A stretch of 43,934 nucleotides of DNA from a virus. Its lineage: Duplodnaviria; Heunggongvirae; Uroviricota; Caudoviricetes. The stretch lies in IMG/VR virus record IMGVR_UViG_2541047848_000002; one strand, written 5' to 3'. Below, piece after piece: positions 1-16,125 of this stretch (position 1 is its first letter; every line of letters starts with the position of its first letter). Made by a program: the position numbers and the translations under genes. Under the pieces are notes generated by a model. The model was not told where the DNA came from and ran no database searches. It saw only the letters and a program-made list of their open reading frames with translations.

Positions 1-1164
1 TTACGCCTTCTTTATATCCTCCATAATTCCAGAGTGGGACATATTTGGGACATTATCACCAAAAATGTCGTCTATTTTCCTCGCATGCTCTGTCAAATGA
101 TTAGGCGCAAGGTGAGCATACCTACGAACCATTTCTATGGACTCCCATCCGCCCATTTCCTGAAGCACTGATAATGGGACGCCTGACTGAATCAGCCAGC
201 TTGCCCAGGTGTGTCTGAGGTCATGGAAACGGAAATCTTCAATTCCTGCACGACGACAAGCTGATAGCCATGATGTCTTGCTGTCGATGCGCATCTTCCT
301 GACCGCAGGCGTTGATGTTCCATCTGCTCGCTTAGCCGCCTTGGTATGTACAAACACCCATTTGTGATGCTTGCCTATTTGATCACGCAACACTTTACAG
401 GCGGTATCGTTCAGCGCCACACCAATGGCGCGGTTTGATTTGCTCTCTTCTGGATTCACCCAGGCAACTCGTCGCTGCATGTCGATTTGTTGCCATTCCA
501 GATTTATGATGTTCGACTTTCTCAGACCAGTTGCCAGCGCAAACTTGACGACAGATTTCAGTGGTTCGGGGCACTCATCAATAAGGCGTTTTGCTTCCTC
601 CTTTTCCAGCCATCTGACTCGCTTGTTTCTGACCGCTGGTATCTTGATGACAGGCGCTTTTTCCAGCCACTTCCAGTCGCGTTCTGCAGCACGGAGAATG
701 GCCTTTATCATGGCAAGATGCTTTGCCTTTGTCTGAGTTGATACTGGCTTTGGTTCATAAACAGGCGGTTCTTTACCTTTCCTGATGGCGGCCTGAACTT
801 TCTGTTTCCATATTTCTTTCGTCTTTCTGTTATGCATTCTGCTTACAGCAGAGTAAATCTTTGCCTCCGAGATATCTTTAAGCCTTATACCCTCAAAATG
901 TTCAAGCCAGAACTCAATCCGGCTTTTATCTGAATCGAGAGATTTTTTATCAGCTTTTTCCTCAAGCCATCTTAGGCAGGCCTCTTCAAAAGTGACATCA
1001 GGTAAATCCCCTAGCTTTTCTACTCGCCAGAGTTCTGCTTTTCGCTTGTCGTGCAACTCCTGAGCTTGCCGCTTGTCCTTTGTGCCAAGAGATTCCTTAA
1101 TTCGTTTCCCGCCCGGGAGCGAATACGAGGCATACCATATTTCATTTCTGCGGAAGAGTGACAT
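1..1164 (-). CDS. int: Phage integrase, tyrosine recombinase family
   Basis: 387-aa ORF at the prophage edge; C-terminal catalytic motifs [10 protein letters not shown] (His-x-x-Arg) and VRRYAHL (Tyr) typical of tyrosine recombinases; SD-like GAGGAAAG upstream of the ATG at 1164; followed by an excisionase-like gene. Confidence 0.93.
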
Positions 1165-1907: not shown

Positions 1908-2005
1908 CTTTCATTAATCCCTGAATTGTTGGTTAATACGCTTGAGGGTAAATGCGAATAATAAAAAAGGAGCCTGTAGCTCCCTGATGATTTTGCTTTT
2001 CATGT

Positions 2006-2489: not shown

Positions 2490-2650
2490 ACCGCCTCCCG
2501 TTTATTATTTATCTTCTCAGCCAGCCGCTGTGCTTTCAGGGGATTTCTGATAACAGAAAGGCCGGGAAATACCCAGCCTCGCTTTGTAACGGAGTAGACG
2601 AAAGTGATCGCGCCTACCCGGATATTATCGTGAGGATGCGTCATCGCCAT
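2462..2650 (-). CDS. Hypothetical small protein (lambda orf60a-like), overlapping neighbours
   Basis: 62-aa ORF overlapping the 3' end of exo and the 5' end of the preceding ORF in different frames, a packing typical of this lambda region. Low confidence. Confidence 0.35.
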
Positions 2651-3321
2651 TGCTCCCCAAATACAAAACCAATTTCAGCCAGTGCCTCGTCCATTTTTTC
2701 GATGAACTCCGGCACCATCTCGTCAAAACTCGCCATGTACTTTTCATTCCGCTCAATCACGACATAATGCAGGCCTTCACGCTTCATACGCGGGTCATAG
2801 TTGGCAAAGTACCAGGCATCTTTTCGCGTCACCCACATGCTGTACTGCACCTGGGCCATGTAAGCCGATTTTATTGCCTCGAAACCACCGAGCCGGAATT
2901 TCATGAAATCCCGGGAGGTAAACGGGCATTTCAGTTCAAGGCCGTTGCCGTCACTGCATAAACCATCGGGAGAGCAGGCGGTGCGCATACTTTCGTCGCG
3001 ATAGATGATCGGGGATTCAGTAACATTCACGCCGGAAGTAAACTCAAACAGGGCTCTGGCGTCATTCTCGTACTGTTTTCCCCAGGCCAGCGCCTTAGCG
3101 TTAACTTCCGGAGCCACACCGGTGCAAATCTCAGCCAGCAGGGTGTGAAAGTAGGACATTTTCATGTCAGGCCACTTTTTTCCGGAGCGGGGTTTTGCTA
3201 TCACATTGTGAACTTCTGAAGCCGTGATGACGCCGAGTCGTAATTTGTTCCACGCATCATCTCCCTGTTCGACAGCTCTCACGTCGATCCCGGTACGCTG
3301 CAGGATAATGTCCGGTGTCAT
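2641..3321 (-). CDS. exo: Lambda exonuclease (Red alpha)
   Basis: 226-aa ORF; translation ([40 protein letters not shown]...) matches lambda Exo along its length from memory; overlaps the bet stop as in lambda. Confidence 0.95.
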
Positions 3322-4103
3322 GCAGCCACCTTCTGCTCAGAGGCTTTCTGTTTCAGGAATCCAAGAGCTTTCACTGCTTCGGCCTGTGTCAGTTCTGACG
3401 ATGCGCGAATGTCGCGGCGAAATATCTGGGAACAGAGCGGCAATAAGTCGTCATCCCATGTTTTATCCAGGGCAATCAGCAGAGTGTTAATCTCCTGCAT
3501 GGTTTCATCGTTAACCGGAGTGATGTCGCGTTCCGGCTGACGTTCTGCAGTGTATGCAGTATTTTCGACAATGCGCTCGGCTTCATCCTTGTCATAGATA
3601 CCAGCAAATCCGAAGGCCAGACGGGCACACTGAATCATGGCTTTATGCCGTAACATCCGTTTGGGATGCGACTGCCACGGCCCCGTGATTTCTCTGCCTT
3701 CGCGGGTTTTGAATGGTTCGCGGCGGCATTCATCCATCCATTCGGTAACGCAGATCGGATGATTGCGGTCCTTGCGGTAAATCCGGCATGTACAGGATTC
3801 GTTGTCCTGCTCAAAGTCCATGCCATCAAACTGCTGGTTTTCATTGATGATGCGGGACCAGCCATCAACGCCCACCACCGGAACGATGCCATTCTGCTTA
3901 TCAGGAAAGGCGTAAATTTCTTTCGTCCATGGATTAAGGCCGTACTGGTTGGCAACGATCAGTAATGCGATGAACTGCGCATCGCTGGCATCACCTTTAA
4001 ATGCCGTCTGGCGAAGAGTGGTGATCAGTTCCTGTGGGTCGACAGAATCCATGCCGACACGTTCAGCCAGCTTCCCTGCCAGCGTTGCGAGTGCTGTACT
4101 CAT
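3318..4103 (-). CDS. bet: Recombinase Bet (Red beta, single-strand annealing protein)
   Basis: 261-aa ORF ([37 protein letters not shown]...) matching lambda Bet by recall; sits in the gam-bet-exo order. Confidence 0.95.
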
Positions 4104-4108
4104 CCGTT

Positions 4109-4405
4109 TTATACCTCTGAATCAATATCAACCTGGTGGTGAGCAATGGTTTCAACCATGTACTGGATGTGTTCTGCCATGCGCTCCTGAAACTCAACAT
4201 CGTCATCAAACGCACGGGTAATGGCTTTTTTGCTGGCCCCGTGGCGTTGCAAATGATCGATGCATAGCGATTCAAACAGGTGCTGGGGCAGGCCTTTTTC
4301 CATGTCGTCTGCCAGTTCTGCCTCTTTCTCTTCACGGGCGATCTGCTGGTAGTAACGCGCCCAGCTCTGAGCCTCAAGACGATCCTGAATGTAATAAGCG
4401 TTCAT
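4109..4405 (-). CDS. gam: Gam, RecBCD inhibitor
   Basis: 98-aa ORF ([39 protein letters not shown]...) matching the short form of lambda Gam by recall. Confidence 0.9.
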
Positions 4406-4480
4406 GGCTGAACTCCTGAAAATGGCTGTGAAAATATCGCCCGCGAAATGCCAGGCTGATTAGGAAAACAGGAAAGGGGA

Positions 4481-4771
4481 TTAGCGATTCAGGCCGTTAC
4501 CGCGTCCGTCGAGAAAAACTTCCACGAGCAAATCACGGGTATAAGTGCGCTCGATGCCGCGATGCAGATAAAGCCGTCCGCGTAAATTAGCTGATGCAGT
4601 CCAGGTACCATCTTTGTGTTTGACCAGCATTCCTGGCATGACCGCGCCGCGATTAACGGTCTGCGTTCTGTAATGTTGATGAACCATAAAAACTCCTGCC
4701 CGTAAGCTGGGCTGCTGAACATATAGAGACTTCTGCGCGTATTCAGGCGGTGGATGGCCGCCGGTTGTCAT
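4481..4771 (-). CDS. Hypothetical early-left protein (kil/cIII position)
   Basis: 96-aa ORF, first ORF downstream of the putative PL promoter and upstream of gam; basic, His/Arg-rich, no arginine-rich N-terminal motif; an overlapping 77-aa ORF in another frame is a competing call. Confidence 0.35.
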
Positions 4772-4964
4772 AACTAAGCCGCCTCGTTGAAGCGACTAAG
4801 GTATGAAATGTTGAGTTGATTTCAGCTGGTCACACCGACGTTCACGCGTCCGTTTCACCCCTCGCACTCCCCGAAGCCTGCTGAAATTCAAACTGCGGAT
4901 CTAAGCGGTCATCGCAACGGTGAATCAGGTGGTTGCCGTATCGTTGTGTTGTTGCGATGAACTT

Positions 4965-4993
4965 ATTTAAAACTATAGTTGTTTTACCGTCAA
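4965..4993 (-). promoter_or_regulatory. Candidate PL promoter (minus strand: TTGACG-N17-TTAAAT) with overlapping operator-like inverted repeats
   Basis: Read on the minus strand: -35 TTGACG (plus 4988-4993), 17-nt spacer, -10 TTAAAT (plus 4965-4970); adjacent palindrome AACAAC-aaaa-GTTGTT (about 4992-5007) and further GGTTGT half-sites up to about 5040, resembling the OR half-sites. Confidence 0.35.
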
Positions 4994-5133
4994 CAACAAA
5001 AGTTGTTTTATTGGTTGTTTTAGATATAACTGGTTGTATTTAGGATGGATTTATTTTGTGACTTGAATCGCATAGCGATAACTGAAGCGAGGTTATGGTG
5101 GTTTTTTTAACGGTGTGTGTGATGAGGGGAGGG

Positions 5134-5163
5134 GACAAAAGAAAACCCGGCACGGTGGCCGGG
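5134..5163 (-). terminator. Rho-independent terminator downstream of the cI-partner-kinase operon
   Basis: On the minus strand: GC stem CCCGGC/GCCGGG (plus 5146-5151 / 5158-5163) followed by a U-run (plus 5134-5145, reading TTTTCTTTTGTC on the minus strand). Confidence 0.5.
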
Positions 5164-5330
5164 CTAGATCTTAAAGTATTTATCTTTTAGAGATGTAGAT
5201 GCAAAATTTTTTGCCTTTGAAAATTTTTTGTCATCAGAAGAGCTTATGAACTCATCTTTTTTGTAGGGAACCGCTAATGCTGCATCACGTCTGCGAGGCA
5301 GCTTACTTACTTCCTCGCACTTTTTCATGA

Positions 5331-6377
5331 TCAGTTATCCTTTAATAACCTATACAGTTTTGTAGGGGTACATCCTGAGGATATTGTTAAGTTCGTAGCA
5401 CGCCTTTTCCGCCCACCATCGTATAAACGAAAACCAGTAGTAGACGAATTTTCTGCGTCAAAAACTATAGACAGTATAACGTCCTCAGACTTTTTTTGCC
5501 ATTCATATGTGCCGTTAGTTGGTTTTGTCATCTGTAGACGCCAGTCAAGAACGCCATCACTTATAGCTGAGAGATCGTTTAGTACGTCTAGTACGGATTG
5601 ATATCTTTCATTTGGATCTACATGAATGCATTTGTTTACTATTGTTATCAATTTTTTATGTATGTGGGAAGGATACTCTTTTAATGGATAGGAGCCATTA
5701 ATTATCGACTCTCTGAGTTGTTCAATCGTTCTAAATGCAGATCTTTCTCTTTCAAAATTATCATATCCAACACACATTCTATATATGGTTAATCCTGCCT
5801 GATATATGTCATATGTGAAATTATAATCATTTGTTGATAAAGAAAAATATTCCGGTGGCACATGAAAATGATATCCAAACTCAGGCGCAGCTCTCGATTC
5901 CTCATTGACTAACTGAGACAATCCAAAGTCAGATAGCATGGCCTCATTTCTGTTTGATATCATGATGTTATTAGGTTTTATATCAAAATGCATAAGACCT
6001 TTTGAGTGTATATGATAAAGCCCACTTAAAAATTGAATAGAATACCGTATTATCTCCCTGCTCGTAAGATTAATCTTTTTTATTAATTGGTTTAGCGAAC
6101 CATTATGATAAAATGGCATGGCTATATAGATATTGCTCTCACATTGAGCAGCATACTGAACTTGCACAATATTTGGATGTGCATGTTTATAGAGAAGCCT
6201 TGCTTCATTAAAGTAGTCGTCGTGGTTAGTGTTTTCTTTTTTTTCTATTTCTTTAATCACCAAGTCATGAGCTAGGTGTCTGTCATGAGCCAGATATACT
6301 TTTGAAAAACAACCCTGTTCTTCTAGATCACGAATCCATTCGAATGCTACATCAGCTCTTTTGTATGGAGTCAGCAT
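5331..6377 (-). CDS. Hanks-type (eukaryotic-like) Ser/Thr protein kinase, lysogen-expressed
   Basis: 348-aa ORF with kinase subdomain motifs: VIKEI (VAIK-like Lys), HFDIKPNN (catalytic loop, HRD variant), SDFGLS (DFG), PPEY (APE-like); about 90 extra C-terminal residues; about 33% GC; strong SD GGAGGT 8 nt upstream; start overlaps the stop of the upstream gene (ATGCTGA). Confidence 0.85.
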   Translation of the reverse strand: MLTPYKRADVAFEWIRDLEEQGCFSKVYLAHDRHLAHDLVIKEIEKKENTNHDDYFNEARLLYKHAHPNIVQVQYAAQCESNIYIAMPFYHNGSLNQLIKKINLTSREIIRYSIQFLSGLYHIHSKGLMHFDIKPNNIMISNRNEAMLSDFGLSQLVNEESRAAPEFGYHFHVPPEYFSLSTNDYNFTYDIYQAGLTIYRMCVGYDNFERERSAFRTIEQLRESIINGSYPLKEYPSHIHKKLITIVNKCIHVDPNERYQSVLDVLNDLSAISDGVLDWRLQMTKPTNGTYEWQKKSEDVILSIVFDAENSSTTGFRLYDGGRKRRATNLTISSGCTPTKLYRLLKDN

Positions 6378-6832
6378 CCCCTTACCTCCGCAGATAGTGC
6401 AGCCAAAACAGCTTCATTTGTTTCAGTTGTAAAACCAGAATTATCGATTCCATTTATATTACGGTGTGACTTCAATATTTCTTTATACTCGATCTCTGTT
6501 AGGTTCAATGATGACTTCATACCAGATTTTCTAATGGTGTAATATCTTCTTACATCACTGCTTGAAAATGCTTCTTGAATAACAGCTTCTATATAAAGGC
6601 GGTCAATGCTAAGATTATCAGAGTTTGATTCAGTAACGCGTATAGCAGCTAATTCAACATTATATAAATTAAGAATGTCGAGGATGTTATTTCGCACATA
6701 CTTTAATTTTTCTGGTGTGTCTAAGGTCGAAGGTATTTTAATAACATCAACACATTTGAGTGCAGACTCATCAGTGCAATATACAACAAAAGATGTAACT
6801 TTGGGCGCCGCCCTAACACCTAGTATTCTCAT
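6371..6832 (-). CDS. Hypothetical protein, translationally coupled partner of the kinase
   Basis: 153-aa ORF immediately downstream of cI in the same orientation (rexA-equivalent position); low GC; stop overlaps kinase start; no domain recognised. Confidence 0.7.
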   Translation of the reverse strand: MRILGVRAAPKVTSFVVYCTDESALKCVDVIKIPSTLDTPEKLKYVRNNILDILNLYNVELAAIRVTESNSDNLSIDRLYIEAVIQEAFSSSDVRRYYTIRKSGMKSSLNLTEIEYKEILKSHRNINGIDNSGFTTETNEAVLAALSAEVRGC

Positions 6833-6912
6833 TTTTTATATCCCATTTTAGAATCAGGCTGCGTTTCTGCAGCCTCTCTCATCACCCAAATGTCTAATCA
6901 GGCTATTATTGA

Positions 6913-7602
6913 TTATCCATGTTTCCTGTATGTTTGCGGCATGCTCCCAATAACTTTCCCGAAGATAAACACCCGGTTCATCTCGTCTTTCTCGATTGGG
7001 TCCCACGGTGAGTAGCTCTTGTTATCAGAGATAACCAGCAGTTTATCCTTCATCATTTGCAGGCGCTTAACATGGGCTGTGTCGTCGTACAGAAACGCAT
7101 AGATACCATCACCGTCGAAAGATTTAACTGTGATATCAACGAACAGCAGATCACCTGGTTCGATCGTTCCTGACATGCTGTCACCACGCACGTTAATGAT
7201 GCGGATATTTTCCGCCTTCCTACCATCGAACATATGACGAGCATCGTCAAACGAGTACTCAACCGAGCGTAGAACTTCTACAAACTCACGGTTGATGACT
7301 CCCGGCCCAGCACTGACTTCTATATCAAGAACGTCAATCTTGAAGTATTTGGAATGGCTGACAGTTGATTGTATTGGTTGCACTGTACTGTCTGACATAT
7401 TTCCAACGCCAGAAGATAACCATTCTGCGCGCACACCCAAAGCGTTCGCGATCTCCACGATTTTAGTTGTTTGATTAGCTTTCCCTGTTTCGATTTTCTG
7501 AATAGCAGCTTGGCTAACCCCGACCAAATCCCCAAGCGCCTTTTGTGTAAGGCCTCGCGCTAATCTGGCTTCTTTAAGTCTTTCTGAGAGTGTTGTTTTC
7601 AT
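6913..7602 (-). CDS. cI: CI-type prophage repressor (HTH plus S24 LexA-like peptidase domain)
   Basis: ORF 6913..7668; probable start MKTTLSERLKEARLARGLTQKALGDLVGVSQAAIQKIE (HTH_XRE); C-terminal domain has Ala-Gly cleavage site (SAGPG), GDSM catalytic Ser and KRL Lys, typical of RecA-stimulated autocleaving repressors; divergent from cro. Confidence 0.9.
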   Translation of the reverse strand: MKTTLSERLKEARLARGLTQKALGDLVGVSQAAIQKIETGKANQTTKIVEIANALGVRAEWLSSGVGNMSDSTVQPIQSTVSHSKYFKIDVLDIEVSAGPGVINREFVEVLRSVEYSFDDARHMFDGRKAENIRIINVRGDSMSGTIEPGDLLFVDITVKSFDGDGIYAFLYDDTAHVKRLQMMKDKLLVISDNKSYSPWDPIEKDEMNRVFIFGKVIGSMPQTYRKHG

Positions 7603-7706
7603 AGTCCAAATGTACAACCAAGGTTTTATTTCATCAAACGAAAATGGTTGTTGACTAAAAACAACCATAGTTTTAATCTTGATTCAAATTAACCACGGAG
7701 GTTGTT
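7603..7706. promoter_or_regulatory. OR operator / PR-PRM region between cI and cro
   Basis: 104-bp divergent intergenic region; candidate PR: -35 TTGACT (7651-7656), 17-nt spacer, -10 TAATCT (7674-7679); inverted repeats ATGGTTGTT-N7-AACAACCAT and AACCAAGGTT as operator candidates; SD GGAGG before the cro ATG. Confidence 0.5.
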
Positions 7707-7937
7707 ATGAACCCAGCTATCAAAACAGCGATCAATATCGTTGGTTCACAAAAGAAACTGGGCGCTGCTTGCGAAGTTTCACAGCAGGCCGTCTATAAGT
7801 GGCTTCACAACAAAGCAAAGGTATCCCCTGAACATGTCGGCAGCATTGTTACGGCTACTGGTGGAGTAGTGAAGGCATACCAGATTCGCCCGGATCTTCC
7901 GAAGTTGTTTCCACACACCGAAAAGAACGCAGCTTAA
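7707..7937 (+). CDS. cro: Cro-like transcriptional regulator
   Basis: 76-aa ORF divergent from cI with an HTH (KKLGAACEVSQQAVYKWL); first gene of the rightward early operon. Confidence 0.8.
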   Translation: MNPAIKTAINIVGSQKKLGAACEVSQQAVYKWLHNKAKVSPEHVGSIVTATGGVVKAYQIRPDLPKLFPHTEKNAA

Positions 7938-7949
7938 ATTTCCATTTCA

Positions 7950-7962
7950 CGCTCTTTAACAA
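7950..7962 (+). promoter_or_regulatory. boxA-like element (CGCTCTTTAACAA), nutR-like position
   Basis: 12 of 13 match to the recalled rrn/lambdoid boxA consensus TGCTCTTTAACAA, 13 nt downstream of the cro stop; no convincing boxB hairpin follows. Confidence 0.4.
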
Positions 7963-8006
7963 TAAGCAATCAACTTAACAGTCAATTCAAACTAAAGGAG
8001 TCAATT

Positions 8007-8546
8007 ATGCAACCACTTACATACCAACAGACTAGCGGATTTAGCCCGACTGCGGTGATAAATCGTTCTCAAACAAAACAGGTGCCAGGCCACGAAAAAA
8101 TCCGTGATGCCGTCCGCGCCTGGTCGGCTGAAGATAATCAGGATGTCGTTGCCGCACTCATTGTGAATGAGTATCGAGCACAGGGCGGCGGCACTATCGA
8201 TTTTTCTGATGATGTCAGTCGTGCACGCCAGAAGCTGTTCCGCTTTCTCGATAACAAATTCGATTCTGAAAAATACCGAAATAACGTGCGTGAACTGACT
8301 CCAGCAATTCTGGCAGTACTACCGCTGAAATATCGCGGCCACCTGGTTGAGCAGGATAGCTTCATGGCTCGGCTGGCTGAAATGGAAAAGGAACTCAGTG
8401 AGGCAAAACAGGCTGTCATTCTCAACGCACCACGCCACCAGAAACTGAAGGAAATTAGTGAAGGTATTGTGTCGATGTTTCGTGTGGACCCAGATCTGGC
8501 TGGTCCATTGATGGCGATGGTTACTACCATGCTGGGGGCGATATGA
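8007..8546 (+). CDS. Hypothetical early regulatory protein (cII position)
   Basis: 179-aa ORF between cro and O with SD AAGGAG; occupies the cII slot but is much longer than lambda CII; function unassigned. Confidence 0.55.
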   Translation: MQPLTYQQTSGFSPTAVINRSQTKQVPGHEKIRDAVRAWSAEDNQDVVAALIVNEYRAQGGGTIDFSDDVSRARQKLFRFLDNKFDSEKYRNNVRELTPAILAVLPLKYRGHLVEQDSFMARLAEMEKELSEAKQAVILNAPRHQKLKEISEGIVSMFRVDPDLAGPLMAMVTTMLGAI

Positions 8547-8632
8547 CAGGTTCAGAAATGGCGAAAGCCGGTCTGCTGGAACAGAACCGACTTTCAGGTG
8601 CAAATCGTAACACACTCATTGCGGGAGGAATT

Positions 8633-10433: not shown

Positions 10434-11099
10434 ATGAAAATCATACAGTTACAAATGGTATTTTTTTACGATTCATCAACGACTGTCGATTTCGATGGAA
10501 TGTCGTATTTTATTAGGCAAACTTTTAAAAAGAAGGCAGGTATTGAATTAACAAACAATATGATGTTGGGCGTTTTACCTATGGATACCCCACCAGAGAT
10601 TCCTCGTCTCCAATTGTTTTCTATAGATAATAAATTTAGAGTTCAATGCTCACTGCAGAGATGTGATTTGTTTTTTGAACGTATGGATTCTGAGCAAGAG
10701 GTAGACTTACATTTGTTTCAAGAAGTTTTCGATAGTGTGGTTGATATCCATAAAGAACTCAATAAGGATATTATCAGAATAGGCTTGGTGGCCGTTAAGG
10801 CGGAATTAAACAACAACCCAAACAAAGAGATTGTTAAAAACTATCTTAGTAACAACATGCAGAATGATAGCGAAATAATTGAAGATATTAATTTAATGTA
10901 TAATAAAAAATTCGAGTTTGAGCAGTCCATATTTAATTGTCATTTGTCGATTATGTCAGGATATGATCTTGTCAGAGAACAACCAATGCTAGTGAAACAG
11001 ATCGATGTGAATACAATCGAGAGTTTTATATTTAAAGATAAATATACCGCAGAAAAAACAAAAAAAGCCTTTTTAAGTAAAGTGAATGAAATTCAGTAA
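10434..11099 (+). CDS. Hypothetical protein, first gene of an AT-rich accessory cassette
   Basis: 221-aa ORF in an about 30% GC island directly after P (lambda ren position); no recognisable domain; weak SD. Confidence 0.7.
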   Translation: MKIIQLQMVFFYDSSTTVDFDGMSYFIRQTFKKKAGIELTNNMMLGVLPMDTPPEIPRLQLFSIDNKFRVQCSLQRCDLFFERMDSEQEVDLHLFQEVFDSVVDIHKELNKDIIRIGLVAVKAELNNNPNKEIVKNYLSNNMQNDSEIIEDINLMYNKKFEFEQSIFNCHLSIMSGYDLVREQPMLVKQIDVNTIESFIFKDKYTAEKTKKAFLSKVNEIQ

Positions 11100-11113
11100 T
11101 GTGAGGTGGCTGA

Positions 11114-12073
11114 ATGAATAAGGATGATAATAAAAAGGATATAAAAAGAATTGCAAATAATAATGCTATAGTCAACGATGACATGGCAAAAAGAACTGCG
11201 CATCATTCACTTTATTCTAATTCACAAGTATCGAATAGTACATCTACGTATACAGGAGGGGTACAAAAAATTAGTAATTTGCAGATAGATAATAAAACTG
11301 CAACAGCTTCAAATAAAGAGCGGGAAAGTATATCTATCAAAGACGCGGCACCACAAAACTTAATAAAAACCTCTCTTTTTGTTAATGAAAAAGAAATGTT
11401 GCATGAAGCTATAAAATACAGTTCAAAAGCAACTGTGCCGGTGATGGATAATACTGTCTCTAATGCCATTTTATCTAATTACTTTGTTAATAATAATTCT
11501 GAATCTACAATTTCTTTTAATAAAGAGAATGTAAAAAAATATACAAAAAGTGATATTGATAACATCCTCTGGAAAAATATCAATGATCAACTAACCAATT
11601 TTTCGCAAGAGTTGAATAAGAGCAAAAAGAATATTAATGATACTAAAAGAAAAATAGGTAAGGTAATGTCTTCATTATCTCAGCAAACTGCAAAGATTGA
11701 GCAATTTGATGCAACATTATCAGATGCTGAAAAAGATATACATGAGAAAGTTAAAAGCTTTGAATCGGAAGTAATTACAGCAAGGAACTCAATGCTGGGT
11801 GTCATTGCTTTATTTGCTTCTTTCTTTACTTTCATTTCTATTTCAGTAAACGTATTTTCTCGCGATATGTCTTTAAGCATGTCAATCTCAGTTTTGTTAG
11901 TGATATGGTCGTGCTTAATTAGCTTTATCTTTGTTTTTATGGCAGGGATTAGCAAGGGAGGAGCTTTTTTTACAAGCTCATCATTTATTAAGCATGCCAT
12001 TTTTATGGTTGTGCTTTTTATTTCATCTTTCGCACTCCCTAAAGTTATTTTTAATATCTTTGCAATTAGCTGA
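11114..12073 (+). CDS. Hypothetical membrane protein with N-terminal Asn/Ser-rich coiled-coil region and C-terminal multi-helix hydrophobic domain
   Basis: 319-aa ORF 14 nt after the previous gene with strong SD GAGGTGG; the C-terminal about 100 aa contain three hydrophobic helix-like segments (LGVIALFASFFTFISISVNVF; ISVLLVIWSCLISFIFVFMAGI; AIFMVVLFISSFALPKVIF); about 30% GC. Confidence 0.75.
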   Translation: MNKDDNKKDIKRIANNNAIVNDDMAKRTAHHSLYSNSQVSNSTSTYTGGVQKISNLQIDNKTATASNKERESISIKDAAPQNLIKTSLFVNEKEMLHEAIKYSSKATVPVMDNTVSNAILSNYFVNNNSESTISFNKENVKKYTKSDIDNILWKNINDQLTNFSQELNKSKKNINDTKRKIGKVMSSLSQQTAKIEQFDATLSDAEKDIHEKVKSFESEVITARNSMLGVIALFASFFTFISISVNVFSRDMSLSMSISVLLVIWSCLISFIFVFMAGISKGGAFFTSSSFIKHAIFMVVLFISSFALPKVIFNIFAIS

Positions 12074-12157
12074 CTATCAGATGTTATCTTCAGTTGTTTA
12101 GGGTTGATTTAAAAGCGAATCTTAATATTTTCAAATTTTGAATTTAGAAATAAAAAA

Positions 12158-12300
12158 GCCATAATATTGTCATCGGAGCCTAAAAAACTCCGGTGACTTC
12201 TGCGCTAAACGGGGACGTTTATGCGCACACACAATCCAAACTCTCATCTCCATTCACAGATGCAGAAATGCACCTACGATTTTTTACATTCGGTGTTTTA
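12158..12300. repeat. Direct repeat copy 1 (about 140 bp; second copy at 14090-14235)
   Basis: Copies align by eye at roughly 88% identity with one indel (core AACTCCGGTGACTTCTGCGCTAAACGGGGACGTTTATGCGCAC...CCATTCACAGATGCAGAAATGCACCT). Confidence 0.7.
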
Positions 12301-12704
12301 CTTCGACAGCCAGAATTGGGAGTCTCTATTCGTCTGGCGGCTAAAGGTGATATGGAAATCGTTATGTTTTGGCCTGAGGTAGTTGTAACTGTTGTAGCAA
12401 CTATGGCTGTGATCATCATGGTGTCCATTTACTGGGGTTGACGACATGATTTATCCGGCGCTATATTCTGTGCGTTGCCGCAAAATCGGCACACGGGATT
12501 GGCGTCCCGGGATACTACTCAACGCATACCGCGTTAAGCGGTTTTTTTGTGCGCTAAGCACGGCTATGCCCAAATTATGGTGGGCTGTGTGAGGGCTTCT
12601 TCGGAAGCGCCGGGTTTGAGTAGCCGGTTACGCCAACCTTACACAGTTCACCACCAGTCGATTGGCGTCGTTGGTGGTGATGGTTAACCTGATGAGGTGA
12701 TACT

Positions 12705-13313
12705 ATGACTACTCAATTAGCATTCCACAAAACGACGTTTACCCCGATTTGCCACAATAACAGAATTTGGCTTACTGCCACTGAAGTTGGTTTAGCACTG
12801 GAATATGCGGACGATAAAGCAGTTCAGCGCATTTACTCTCGGCACTCAGATGAATTCACAGATATGATGACAAGGGTGGTCAAAGTGACCACCCCTCGTG
12901 GAATGCAGGAGTCTCGAGTATTTAGCCTTCGCGGAGCCCATTTGATCGCCATGTTTGCTCGTACTCCTGTGGCCAAAGAATTCCGCCGCTGGGTTCTGGA
13001 TATTCTCGATCGAGAAGTTCAACAATCCCCAATCACAAAACAATTCACTGATAACGAACTTTGCACACTCGCCTGGTTATGGCGAGCAAGTGATACGATG
13101 TTAACCGCCTGCCAGAACGTTACGCCCCTTCTTCAGGTCGCAGAGCATCGCGAAGCAGGTAGATTCACTTCAATCGAACAAGAATATCCTCGGATACTCA
13201 ACAGGGCGCGAGAAATCCTTGCCAGAGAAACGGCGCATGTAAAATTCCAACCGTGGCAGGATGATAAGTGGAGTCGTGTGTTACCATATTTCCGTCAGAA
13301 TCTGTTGCAATAA
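12705..13313 (+). CDS. Bro-N domain protein (putative antirepressor-like regulator)
   Basis: 202-aa ORF with SD GAGGTGA; N-terminal region (FTPICHNNRIWLTATEVGLALEYADDKAVQRIY) resembles the Bro-N/antirepressor N-terminal domain. Confidence 0.7.
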   Translation: MTTQLAFHKTTFTPICHNNRIWLTATEVGLALEYADDKAVQRIYSRHSDEFTDMMTRVVKVTTPRGMQESRVFSLRGAHLIAMFARTPVAKEFRRWVLDILDREVQQSPITKQFTDNELCTLAWLWRASDTMLTACQNVTPLLQVAEHREAGRFTSIEQEYPRILNRAREILARETAHVKFQPWQDDKWSRVLPYFRQNLLQ

Positions 13314-13547: not shown

Positions 13548-14057
13548 ATGATGTGGAACTTTGACAGTGCCGACTTAAGTGCAATAGCAGCAGGCATTTC
13601 TGCGTTTGGCACATTAGCCGCAGCGGGGTCGGCGCTTGCAAGTTGGTACACGTCAAAAAAAGCGCTGCAGCTACAAAATAGAGTTTACCTTTATGAGTCT
13701 TTAAAGGCTTGCGCTGAGAGAGCCAATTCATCAGCTAAAGATAAGCGCGGATCTGAATGGAGCGTTAATGATGCAGCGGATATCATCAGGTGCCTAGTAC
13801 GGGCGATGGAGATCATCAAGCAGGATAGCCAGCAGAAAGAAGGTAATCAGGCATTAATGTTGAAACAGTACTTTGTTAATCTGCTAATAATGGAACTGTA
13901 CGAGGAAGTTCATAACGGTGATGCGGCTGATTCTGTTTTTAAAAGGACGGAACCTACACAAGTACTTGATAACTTATGGGGCAAATGGCAGGAGGCTATA
14001 GCTTTTTTTGATATTTGGAATTACCCAGTTGCGACTGAGGAAGACTTGGCAGACTAA
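13548..14057 (+). CDS. Hypothetical protein with N-terminal hydrophobic (Ala/Gly-rich) segment
   Basis: 169-aa ORF (MMWNFDSADLSAIAAGISAFGTLAAAGSALASWY...) preceded by an AT-rich region; no domain recognised. Confidence 0.6.
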   Translation: MMWNFDSADLSAIAAGISAFGTLAAAGSALASWYTSKKALQLQNRVYLYESLKACAERANSSAKDKRGSEWSVNDAADIIRCLVRAMEIIKQDSQQKEGNQALMLKQYFVNLLIMELYEEVHNGDAADSVFKRTEPTQVLDNLWGKWQEAIAFFDIWNYPVATEEDLAD

Positions 14058-14089
14058 TTTTCAGCACATTTGATTTCCAATAATCAACC

Positions 14090-14235
14090 AGCCATAATCA
14101 TGCCATTGGAGCCTGAACAACTCCGGTGACTTCTGCGCTAAACGGGGACGTTTATGCGCACATACAATCCAACCTATCTTCTCCATTCACAGATGCAGAA
14201 ATGCACCTGCGATTTTTTGCATCCAGCGTTTGGCC
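14090..14235. repeat. Direct repeat copy 2 (partner of 12158-12300), immediately upstream of the NinB/YbcN-like gene
   Basis: See copy 1; this copy runs into the SD (GGAGG) and GTG start of the ORF at 14252. Confidence 0.7.
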
Positions 14236-14251
14236 TCTGCGGAGGTGAAGC

Positions 14252-14707
14252 GTGAACCTCCCACAAGATGGCATCAAATTACATCGCGGTAACTTCACCG
14301 CTATCGGTCGGCAGATCCAGCCTTATCTGGAGGAGGGCAAATGCTTTCGCATGGTGCTTAAACCGTGGCGTGAGAAACGCAGTCTTTCCCAGAATGCACT
14401 CAGCCACATGTGGTACAGCGAAATCAGTGAATACCTCATCAACAGGGGTAAAACGTTCGCCACTCCAGCTTGGGTAAAAGATGCTCTCAAACACACATAT
14501 CTCGGTTATGAAACCAAAGACCTGGTTGATGTCGTAACCGGTGATATCACCACTATCCAGTCGTTACGCCATACCTCCGATCTTGATACCGGAGAGATGT
14601 ATGTCTTCCTGTGTAAGGTTGAAGCCTGGGCGGTGAATATTGGCTGCCACCTGACTATTCCGCAGAGCTGCGAGTTCCAGCTGCTCCGTGACAAGCAGGA
14701 GGCGTAA
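14252..14707 (+). CDS. NinB/Orf-family recombination protein (YbcN-like)
   Basis: 151-aa ORF with GTG start and SD GGAGG; motif [13 protein letters not shown] resembles the NinB RSLDQN...W motif; first gene of a DLP12-like nin block. Confidence 0.7.
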
Positions 14708-15656: not shown

Positions 15657-15741
15657 AGTCAGAGATAACAATCAACTAATACTGTTTTGTTGATTTTTGC
15701 TTGTAATTGGCGTTCTGGTCTGATTTTTGTGGAGTAAGTTG

Positions 15742-16125
15742 ATGCGTGATATTCAGATGGTTCTTGAGCGTTGGGGAGCGTGGGCGGCTAATAATCATGA
15801 AGATGTGACCTGGTCGTCCATTGCCGCCGGTTTTAAGGGATTAATTACTTCAAAAGTAAAATCTCGCCCGCAATGTTGTGACGATGACGCGATGATTATT
15901 TGCGGGTGCATGGCCCGTCTGAAAAAGAACAACAGCGATTTGCACGATTTATTAGTAGATTATTATGTAGTCGGTATGACATTCATGTCACTGGCAGGTA
16001 AGCATTGCTGCTCTGATGGTTATATCGGGAAAAGGTTACAGAAGGCTGAGGGCATAATTGAAGGGATGTTAATGGCATTAGATATCCGGTTAGAGATGGA
16101 TATCGTTGTTAATAACTCTAATTAA
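15742..16125 (+). CDS. Q: Late-gene antiterminator Q (phage 82/DLP12 QuuD type)
   Basis: ORF 15727..16125 (TTG start on track); probable ATG at 15742 ([22 protein letters not shown]...); Cys-rich zinc-binding region; directly upstream of the late/lysis region. Confidence 0.85.

Follow-up and report, generated by a model that had tools for sequence, protein, structure and literature searches.

A lambdoid early-left leader without a recognisable N antiterminator in a DLP12-type prophage

Layout of the early-left region

The whole stretch analysed here (the window) is the 43,934-nucleotide (nt) virus record IMGVR_UViG_2541047848_000002, a lambdoid prophage of the DLP12 type, and the subject of this study is the leader that follows its leftward promoter PL. 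A first-pass annotation of the window had found no recognisable N antiterminator in this region and had proposed that early antitermination is either N-independent or carried by a highly divergent N analogue of 96 amino acids (aa). Our homology searches found no N-family gene, no Nun and no put RNA, and the 96-aa open reading frame (ORF) was identified as kil with an upstream extension. The region may well be the early-left arm of a DLP12-type lambdoid prophage that has lost N and nutL and carries an N-independent, partly translated regulatory leader, a reading which we favour tentatively. Positions of the features are collected in Table 1.

The layout of the window is identical to that of phage 4A7 (Bievrevirus), with the DLP12 hallmark genes. 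The leader stretch (4772-5163) is matched in 2211 of the 5426 complete E. coli genomes, or about 40%, and no annotated feature lies under it among the matches listed. The leader is also carried by deposited phage isolates (4A7, 4C10, Perceval, Turner and the PhiR series) which have no annotated N, and PhiR5_1 is 100% identical to the window over 4772-4960.

Table 1. Features of the early regions of the window and their positions
Feature	Position	Strand	Description
int	1-1164	-	early-left arm; followed by xis and small ORFs
First clear intrinsic terminator of the PL operon	1967-1985	-	stem and TTTTTTATTATT; upstream of TraR/DksA-like gene, xis and int; kept in 4A7
exo	2641-3321	-	early-left arm
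bet	3318-4103	-	early-left arm
gam	4109-4405	-	phrog_259; immediately downstream of kil
kil (68 aa, FtsZ-inhibitor family)	4481-4687	-	phrog_294 match; start as in homologues
Junction element ATGACAACCGGCGGCCATCCACCGCC...GCGCAGAAGTCT	4727-4771	-	start of the 96-aa ORF; recurs in relatives
Hairpin CUUAGUCGCUUC-AAC-GAGGCGGCUUAG	4774-4800	-	just upstream of ATG 4771; z -3.6
Short upstream ORF	4796-4891	-	TTG 4891 or GTG 4858 to amber TAG 4798-4796; encodes ...GVKRTRERRCDQLKSTQHFIP; frame of the 96-aa ORF
69-nt leader core	4819-4887	-	predicted closing helix and two hairpins; minimum free energy -24.4 kcal/mol, z -2.35
boxC-like GU-rich segment CAGCAGGCTTCGGGGAGTGCGA	4862-4883	-	18 of 22 positions identical to lambda +76 to +97
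5'-terminal stem of the PL transcript	arms 4951-4957 and 4912-4918 (span 4912-4957)	-	7-10 bp, z -0.8
Leftward operators (OL) and PL promoter	4965-5011	-	repeats spaced 24 nt, mirroring the rightward OR/PR
Conserved block between terminator and OL	5060-5140		near-identical across immunity types, adjoining operators diverge
Intrinsic terminator closing the cI-stk immunity operon	5144-5165	-	8-bp stem (6 GC) and T run
Ser/Thr kinase gene (stk)	5331-6377		right of the terminator at 5165-5144
cI	6913-7668		right of the early-left arm, after RuvC-like ORF
cro	7707-7937	+	
rrn-type consensus boxA CGCTCTTTAACAA	7950-7962	+	nutR position, 13 nt past the cro stop, no boxB
cII/YdaT-like gene	8007-8546	+	followed by O and P
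AT-rich morons, isrK/C4/ant module, ninB, rusA		+	between P and the Q-like gene
Q-like gene	15727-16125	+	followed by nmpC-like porin

The assignment of PL is well supported by the sequence of the region. A -35 element (TTGACG, 4993-4988) and a -10 element (TTAAAT, 4970-4965) are separated by a 17-nt spacer, with the predicted start of transcription (+1) at about 4957. The operator repeats (4967-5011) mirror those of the rightward promoter PR, and 4967-4985 is 95% complementary to 7658-7676. When the region is aligned to two relatives of another immunity type, only the operators (~4960-5050) have diverged; identity returns exactly at the predicted +1 (~4955-4958) and runs on to kil. The leader, which begins exactly at the +1 of PL, spans at least three immunity types, and in a third variant (12 of 80 loci) the first 36 nt of the transcript are replaced. 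The terminator of the immunity operon is kept in 4A7 and NCTC8623 despite different upstream genes. Within the conserved block of about 80 nt between this terminator and OL there is a palindrome, ATCGCTATGCGAT, reminiscent of the ATCGC/GCGAT arms at the leader's start.

The 96-aa ORF is Kil with an upstream extension

As had been reported from the first pass, the 96-aa ORF (4481-4771, minus strand) lacks an arginine-rich motif. Homology search with its product returned no N family; it returned PHROG 294 ('Kil protein for bacterial septation inhibition'), matched over residues 20-95 with an E-value of 2.4e-37. Its place beside gam in the PL operon agrees with that of the Kil/KilR FtsZ inhibitors of lambdoid and Rac-type prophages, and a 207-nt kil is annotated at the equivalent place in 4A7 and HK639. 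The Kil homologues of Enterobacter, Klebsiella and Salmonella all begin with MVHQHY, which corresponds to ATG 4687 here and to a protein of 68 aa. This 68-aa core is 71-87% identical in other Enterobacteriaceae, and the sequence preceding the MVHQHY start is unrelated between genera. Judged from these alignments the 96-aa ORF is Kil, with its real start at ATG 4687, preceded by an in-frame open extension that is found in the E. coli lineage and in none of the other genera. The proposal that the 96-aa protein is a divergent N analogue therefore falls.

With the conserved start of Kil at ATG 4687, the true length of the leader is about 270 nt (4957 to 4688); the earlier estimate of about 185 nt was the distance to the 96-aa ORF. 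No other ORF of N-like size is present on the minus strand in 4772-5330, in agreement with the first-pass annotation. The sole other ORF of at least 40 aa on this strand is one of 54 aa (5164-5328), which lies upstream of the terminator of the cI/stk operon. It follows from the Kil assignment that the 96-aa 'hypothetical protein' which is routinely annotated at this place is Kil with a doubtful start.

Searches for N, Nun and put

To our knowledge, lambdoid phages have two known solutions for early antitermination, N with nut sites and the put RNA. Profile search of 20 early ORFs against the PHROG N families, including the N-like PHROG 271, gave no match. As a positive control, the 76-aa ORF of a Citrobacter relative (L107), which lies behind a boxA and boxB pair, does match phrog_271, and the search is therefore able to see N proteins. 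Translated search of the window with this N-like protein and with HK022 Nun (tblastn) found nothing. In a lambda-type N/nut system, an N protein with an N-terminal arginine-rich motif (ARM) is encoded a short way past PL, the PL and PR transcripts each contain boxA, and a boxB hairpin lies a few nt downstream of boxA. In the window we found a short, unanchored arginine-rich ORF, boxA in the PR transcript only and no boxB hairpin.

The put RNA is a cis-acting antiterminator that binds the zinc-binding domain of the beta' subunit of RNA polymerase (RNAP) and is blocked by rpoC-Y75N. A put covariance model (R1) was built from eight RNAs, namely HK022 putL and putR and those of HK639, phiEt88, UPF_BP1, CobraSix, S9-5 and PdC23. 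Untrained putR copies are recovered by the model at 59-62 bits, and known and untrained put RNAs together span 59-101 bits. With filters off and E-values up to 10, no match was obtained in the early region (4400-8600, transcribed strand), and the best matches anywhere in the window reach at most 11.8 bits. The conserved put core GGCGGGTTCAGGATGAACGGCAAT is absent from the leader, and the two-stem RNA of about 70 nt with conserved sequence and structure that defines HK022-type put was not found. A likeness to the third stem region, or 3' part, of the putL-like feature of HK639 was rejected because 200 of 1000 shuffles score equally high. Rfam gave no match to the leader at gathering score and, at permissive E-values, only matches of at most 17 bits with E of at least 1 in 4300-5400; the leaders of L107 and of two further relatives, L005 and L108, gave no Rfam match.

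The window is similar to HK022 and HK639 in being an N-less lambdoid phage with a conserved, structured and non-coding-looking element just past PL, and with the put-type phages HK639 and S9-5 it shares a kil homologue as well as the opening ~20-30 nt of the PL transcript. However, it differs from them in having neither a match to the put model nor the put core. The lineage can be called N-independent insofar as it has none of N, Nun and put. The first-pass suggestion of N-independent antitermination is supported by these absences only.

Constraint and RNA structure of the leader

In a set of 66 family members, the 69-nt core has a nucleotide diversity of 0.022 and the 84 nt ahead of kil (4771-4688) one of 0.004, with four of the 84 sites variable; for kil, gam, bet and exo, the third codon positions give 0.04-0.064. 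Diversity below the level of third codon positions shows that the leader is under purifying selection. This selection is strongest in the stretch immediately ahead of kil, where the leader is most constrained. Leader positions 111-142 are almost invariant across 30 variants. BLAST of phages with the leader returned only copies of at least 95% identity, and 19 kil loci from other genera hold pieces of the junction but no leader core. As no homologue of the core was found outside the close E. coli family, covariation cannot decide its structure.

Of the long-range complementary segments described from the first pass, ATCGCAAC does lie at 4911-4918, but its partner GTTGCGAT sits at 4951-4958 and not at 4949-4956. 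This 5' stem is paired in 38-39 of the 42 unique relatives without covariation, and its 5' arm is the part replaced in the third variant. Folding gave a divided answer: the leader in its full 189 nt showed no stability beyond that of shuffles (z -0.43) and the long-range stem hardly departs from them, whereas the core and the hairpin at 4774-4800 are more stable than shuffles (Table 1). All five variable paired columns of the core retain a standard pair by one-sided wobble changes, and four of the five substitutions in the hairpin in relatives retain pairing via wobble. Comparison with relatives, which had been suggested as a check along with folding, thus found maintained pairs but no compensatory change, and one of the core helices was picked after the variation had been seen. 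On this modelling the leader structure is weakly supported. A second copy of the core, which would be the analogue of putR, was found neither in the window nor in 4A7 or 26 other loci. Two further candidates were rejected, namely a hairpin UGAAAU/AUUUCA (4804-4824) with an A-C mismatch in 34 of 42 relatives, and U4874C with A4853G as a covarying pair, of which all four combinations occur.

An arginine-rich ORF hidden upstream of kil

The arginine-rich motif KRTRERR lies within the short upstream ORF, which only the amber codon at 4798-4796 keeps apart from the 96-aa ORF. CAG stands in place of this TAG in 51 of 66 relatives (77%), and there the frame of kil is open from 4900 into kil, reading ...SRLRGVRGVKRTRERRCDQLKSTQHFIPQSLQRGG..., then MTTGGHPPP... 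and then Kil. Counted over unique relatives, the codon is CAG in 38 of 42; amber is found in the window and in the deposited phage PhiR5_1. It is because of the amber codon that the earlier reading met only the 96-aa ORF, without the arginine-rich motif. Diversity of the upstream ORF at the three codon positions is 0.018, 0.015 and 0.060, and its three common polymorphisms are all synonymous changes at third positions. A 31-aa product is on record once (P0080). From these sequence patterns, translation of the upstream ORF seems plausible. Protein searches with the arginine-rich extension returned the E. coli family only, with no match in PHROGs or Pfam. Alignment of the extension to lambda N was not significant (171 of 2000 shuffles) and a relationship on this ground was rejected; an N relic or minimal N at this place is unlikely.

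A consensus boxA downstream of cro

The first-pass annotation had also pointed to a near-consensus boxA downstream of cro with no boxB-like hairpin, and both parts of this statement are borne out. The boxA matches TGCTCTTTAACAA at 12 of 13 positions and is the sole match in the window with at most one mismatch. The cro-cII spacer holds no GC-rich boxB-like hairpin of 5 bp and folds at only -4.1 kcal/mol (z -0.1). In the PL leader (4688-4960) there is no boxA match with up to three mismatches, so that the consensus boxA UGCUCUUUA occurs in the PR transcript, upstream of terminators, and not in the PL transcript. It accompanies window-type cro in 1513 genomes with 100% conservation. No such element follows cro in the 4A7-type sister phages, whose leader is that of the window, or in L005, whose operators are those of the window. 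The boxA at 7950-7962 cannot be the partner of the leader.

The boxA of rrn operons contains CUUUA, which is absent from lambda, and rrn operons do not require boxB and boxC (PMC2724277). The boxA of the window is likewise of the consensus type with CUUUA and no boxB beside it but, in contrast to the rrn system, it is present on one arm and in one immunity module only. It may act alone with host Nus factors. A 13-nt sequence, AATCAACTYAACA, is present in sense orientation both in the PL leader (4809-4821, minus strand) and 6 nt past the boxA (7968-7980, plus strand); it was rejected as a shared element, having an E-value of 35 over the window and no common hairpin. In five relatives, a 5-nt TCAAC duplication is present at 4809-4821.

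Mosaic origin of the leader

On comparison with the N/nutL cassette of lambda, the leader most likely derives by decay from a lambda-type N leader, with loss of boxA, boxB, N and tL1. Like the lambda cassette, it is placed directly after OL/PL and runs for a similar distance ahead of the first gene (N begins at about +224 in lambda), and the boxA after cro takes the nutR position. A GU-rich boxC-like segment lies at +75 to +96, as far from +1 as its lambda counterpart, which comes shortly downstream of boxB in nutL; the likeness has a shuffle p of ~0.03-0.04 in local and semi-global alignment. A similar sequence, CTTCGGGGTGTGG, is found right after boxB in L107. The first ~30 nt of the leader are common to the PL leaders of N-type (L107) and put-type (HK639, phiEt88 and S9-5) phages. 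The window departs from lambda in that N is missing, boxB is found on neither arm, the PL leader is without boxA and kil is the first recognisable gene.

The 3' part of the leader is also mosaic. In HK639, L005 and L108 the segment 4800-4727, consisting of the hairpin and the junction element, is found again, directly behind intrinsic terminators and followed by unrelated genes, and in L108 the hairpin itself follows directly on the terminator. Sites of the junction element are present in L003 (33085-33140), L005 (3967-4025) and L108 (1799-1860). The element opens a short peptide (20-21 aa in HK639 and L005), the PPP codons of which form the 3' arm of a hairpin. This hairpin is annotated as a terminator in HK639, and it may therefore be a translation-sensitive attenuator.

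The PL leaders of L005 (3100-3390, with operators as in the window) and L108 (1230-1765) contain a boxA-like TGCTTTTTAACAA followed by a GC-rich region of about 250 nt. L108 has a further non-coding stretch of about 300 nt which ends in a terminator, and L005 has in addition a lysine- and arginine-rich ORF of 70 aa and unknown function (phrog_5305). These leaders may represent another uncharacterised early-left cassette.

How the early genes may be expressed

A very common prophage type, which also exists as deposited phage isolates, is thus without either of the known solutions and has terminators before xis/int and Q. At stake is whether N-less lambdoid phages are simply poor in terminators or hide an unrecognised mechanism; the candidate means are translation of the leader, host Nus factors at the consensus boxA, plain read-through and a new RNA or peptide device.

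The immunity-operon terminator is followed by OL/PL, the leader of ~270 nt and kil-gam-bet-exo, and in the reading that we tentatively favour these four genes would be expressed from PL without a dedicated antiterminator. None would be needed for them because no strong intrinsic terminator precedes the one at 1985-1967, and none was found between PL and 2580. The leader would be translated from about 4858 by the upstream ORF in the frame of kil, continuously in most relatives; in the window the amber codon would cut this ORF and translation could restart at ATG 4771. Such translation could limit Rho-dependent termination in an otherwise long untranslated leader, and the hairpins at 4774-4800 and 4746-4762, together with the constrained 84 nt before kil, would determine how Kil is translated and how stable the mRNA is. 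For the right arm, in the immunity type of the window, the consensus boxA may bring in Nus factors of the host in the manner of rrn operons and independently of N.

Several observations weigh against this reading. The terminator at 1985-1967 stands before xis and int with no promoter-like site after it, and several terminators lie between PR and Q, both here (12528-12542) and in 4A7 (12964-12985); some form of read-through is therefore still required. The upstream ORF has non-ATG starts (GTG or TTG) with a weak Shine-Dalgarno sequence, a stop or a 5-nt insertion interrupts its frame in 13 of 66 relatives, and its synonymous-looking polymorphisms fit RNA wobble pairs equally well. The likeness to lambda is short and of marginal significance.

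The same terminators, standing downstream although N and put are both absent, can be taken to favour a new cis-acting antiterminator RNA, in which the 69-nt core would do a put-like job on RNAP with an unrelated sequence. The core occupies the place of putL/nutL, a mosaic slot that is filled in relatives by a put or an N/nut cassette; it is more stable than its shuffles with all variable paired columns still paired, it overlaps the almost invariant positions 111-142, and its diversity is below the third-codon level. We nevertheless consider such an RNA unlikely, as the pairing is without compensatory covariation and includes a helix chosen with the variation in view, the leader as a whole is not unusually stable, homologues are confined to the close E. 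coli family and the overlapping ORF explains the conserved stretch equally well. The right operon contains no second copy of the core, although HK639 and CobraSix likewise manage with a single left-arm put. In a broader form of the proposal, the invariant central part of the leader (~4819-4887), which overlaps the KRTRERR mini-ORF, would be a third type of device for early antitermination in lambdoid phages, either a put-unrelated cis RNA or an ARM micropeptide acting on its own mRNA. This also seems unlikely to us; if true, it would account for the way in which DLP12-type phages get past their early terminators in the absence of N.

The arginine-rich upstream ORF could encode a minimal or vestigial N that binds an RNA element and works with boxA and Nus factors, in the form of a 20-31-aa peptide in the window or of a 125-136-aa ARM-Kil fusion in most relatives. 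Its KRTRERRCDQ resembles the lambda N motif TRRRERRAEKQ, it would be encoded immediately after PL as N genes are, the polymorphism is coding-like, the fused ORF is N-like in size in the 51 relatives with an open frame, a consensus boxA is present at the nutR position, and a gene caller predicted both MKRTRERR... (P0010) and the 31-aa product. However, we regard a minimal N as highly improbable. Neither arm has a boxB-like hairpin, the ORF is similar to no N family and offers nothing more than a short low-complexity motif, and the parts of N that bind NusA or RNAP have no counterpart in it. Translation would have to start at a poorly spaced GTG or TTG; given single-base indels upstream, GTG 4858 is the only consistent start, and with the 5-nt insertion only 13 residues are common to all relatives. 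No extension of this type precedes Kil in other genera, boxA is absent from sister phages that share the leader, and PhiR5_1 has the same amber codon. An rrn-type complex, for its part, is known to act on Rho-dependent terminators and not on strong intrinsic ones. Antitermination by the host alone, with NusB/NusE/NusA/NusG/SuhB assembled at the post-cro boxA on PR transcripts to suppress Rho-dependent termination and the PL leader irrelevant to antitermination, would fit the position and invariance of this boxA, its rrn-type sequence including the CUUUA that lambda lacks, and the dispensability of boxB and boxC in rrn operons (PMC2724277). It would leave the PL leader and the 4A7-type isolates that carry the same leader without a boxA, and 12528-12542 is a strong intrinsic terminator, outside the range of such a complex; we therefore find this explanation rather doubtful. 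A further point against it is that a boxA can also repress translation, as is reported for suhB (PMC5725501).

Neighbouring genes and inserted modules

The immunity operon (5331-6832) contains a 933W-type stk and a RuvC-like ORF of 153 aa, both downstream of cI; the same slot is occupied in 4A7-type relatives by an ASCH-domain gene and another ORF. Two AT-rich ORFs of 221 and 319 aa, which match PHROGs of unknown function, are inserted after P (10434-12073). They have a moron-like look, and membrane segments are predicted for the second. A direct repeat of about 110 nt (12100-12300 and 14040-14260) flanks the module of isrK (12476-12548), C4 (12573-12658) and the anti-repressor gene (12705-13313), and it may be the recombination joint of this inserted module. 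The repeat and the PL leader have the 11-mer GCGCAGAAGTC and the sequence GGAGTTTTT in common, with four matches at up to one mismatch against 0.3 expected.

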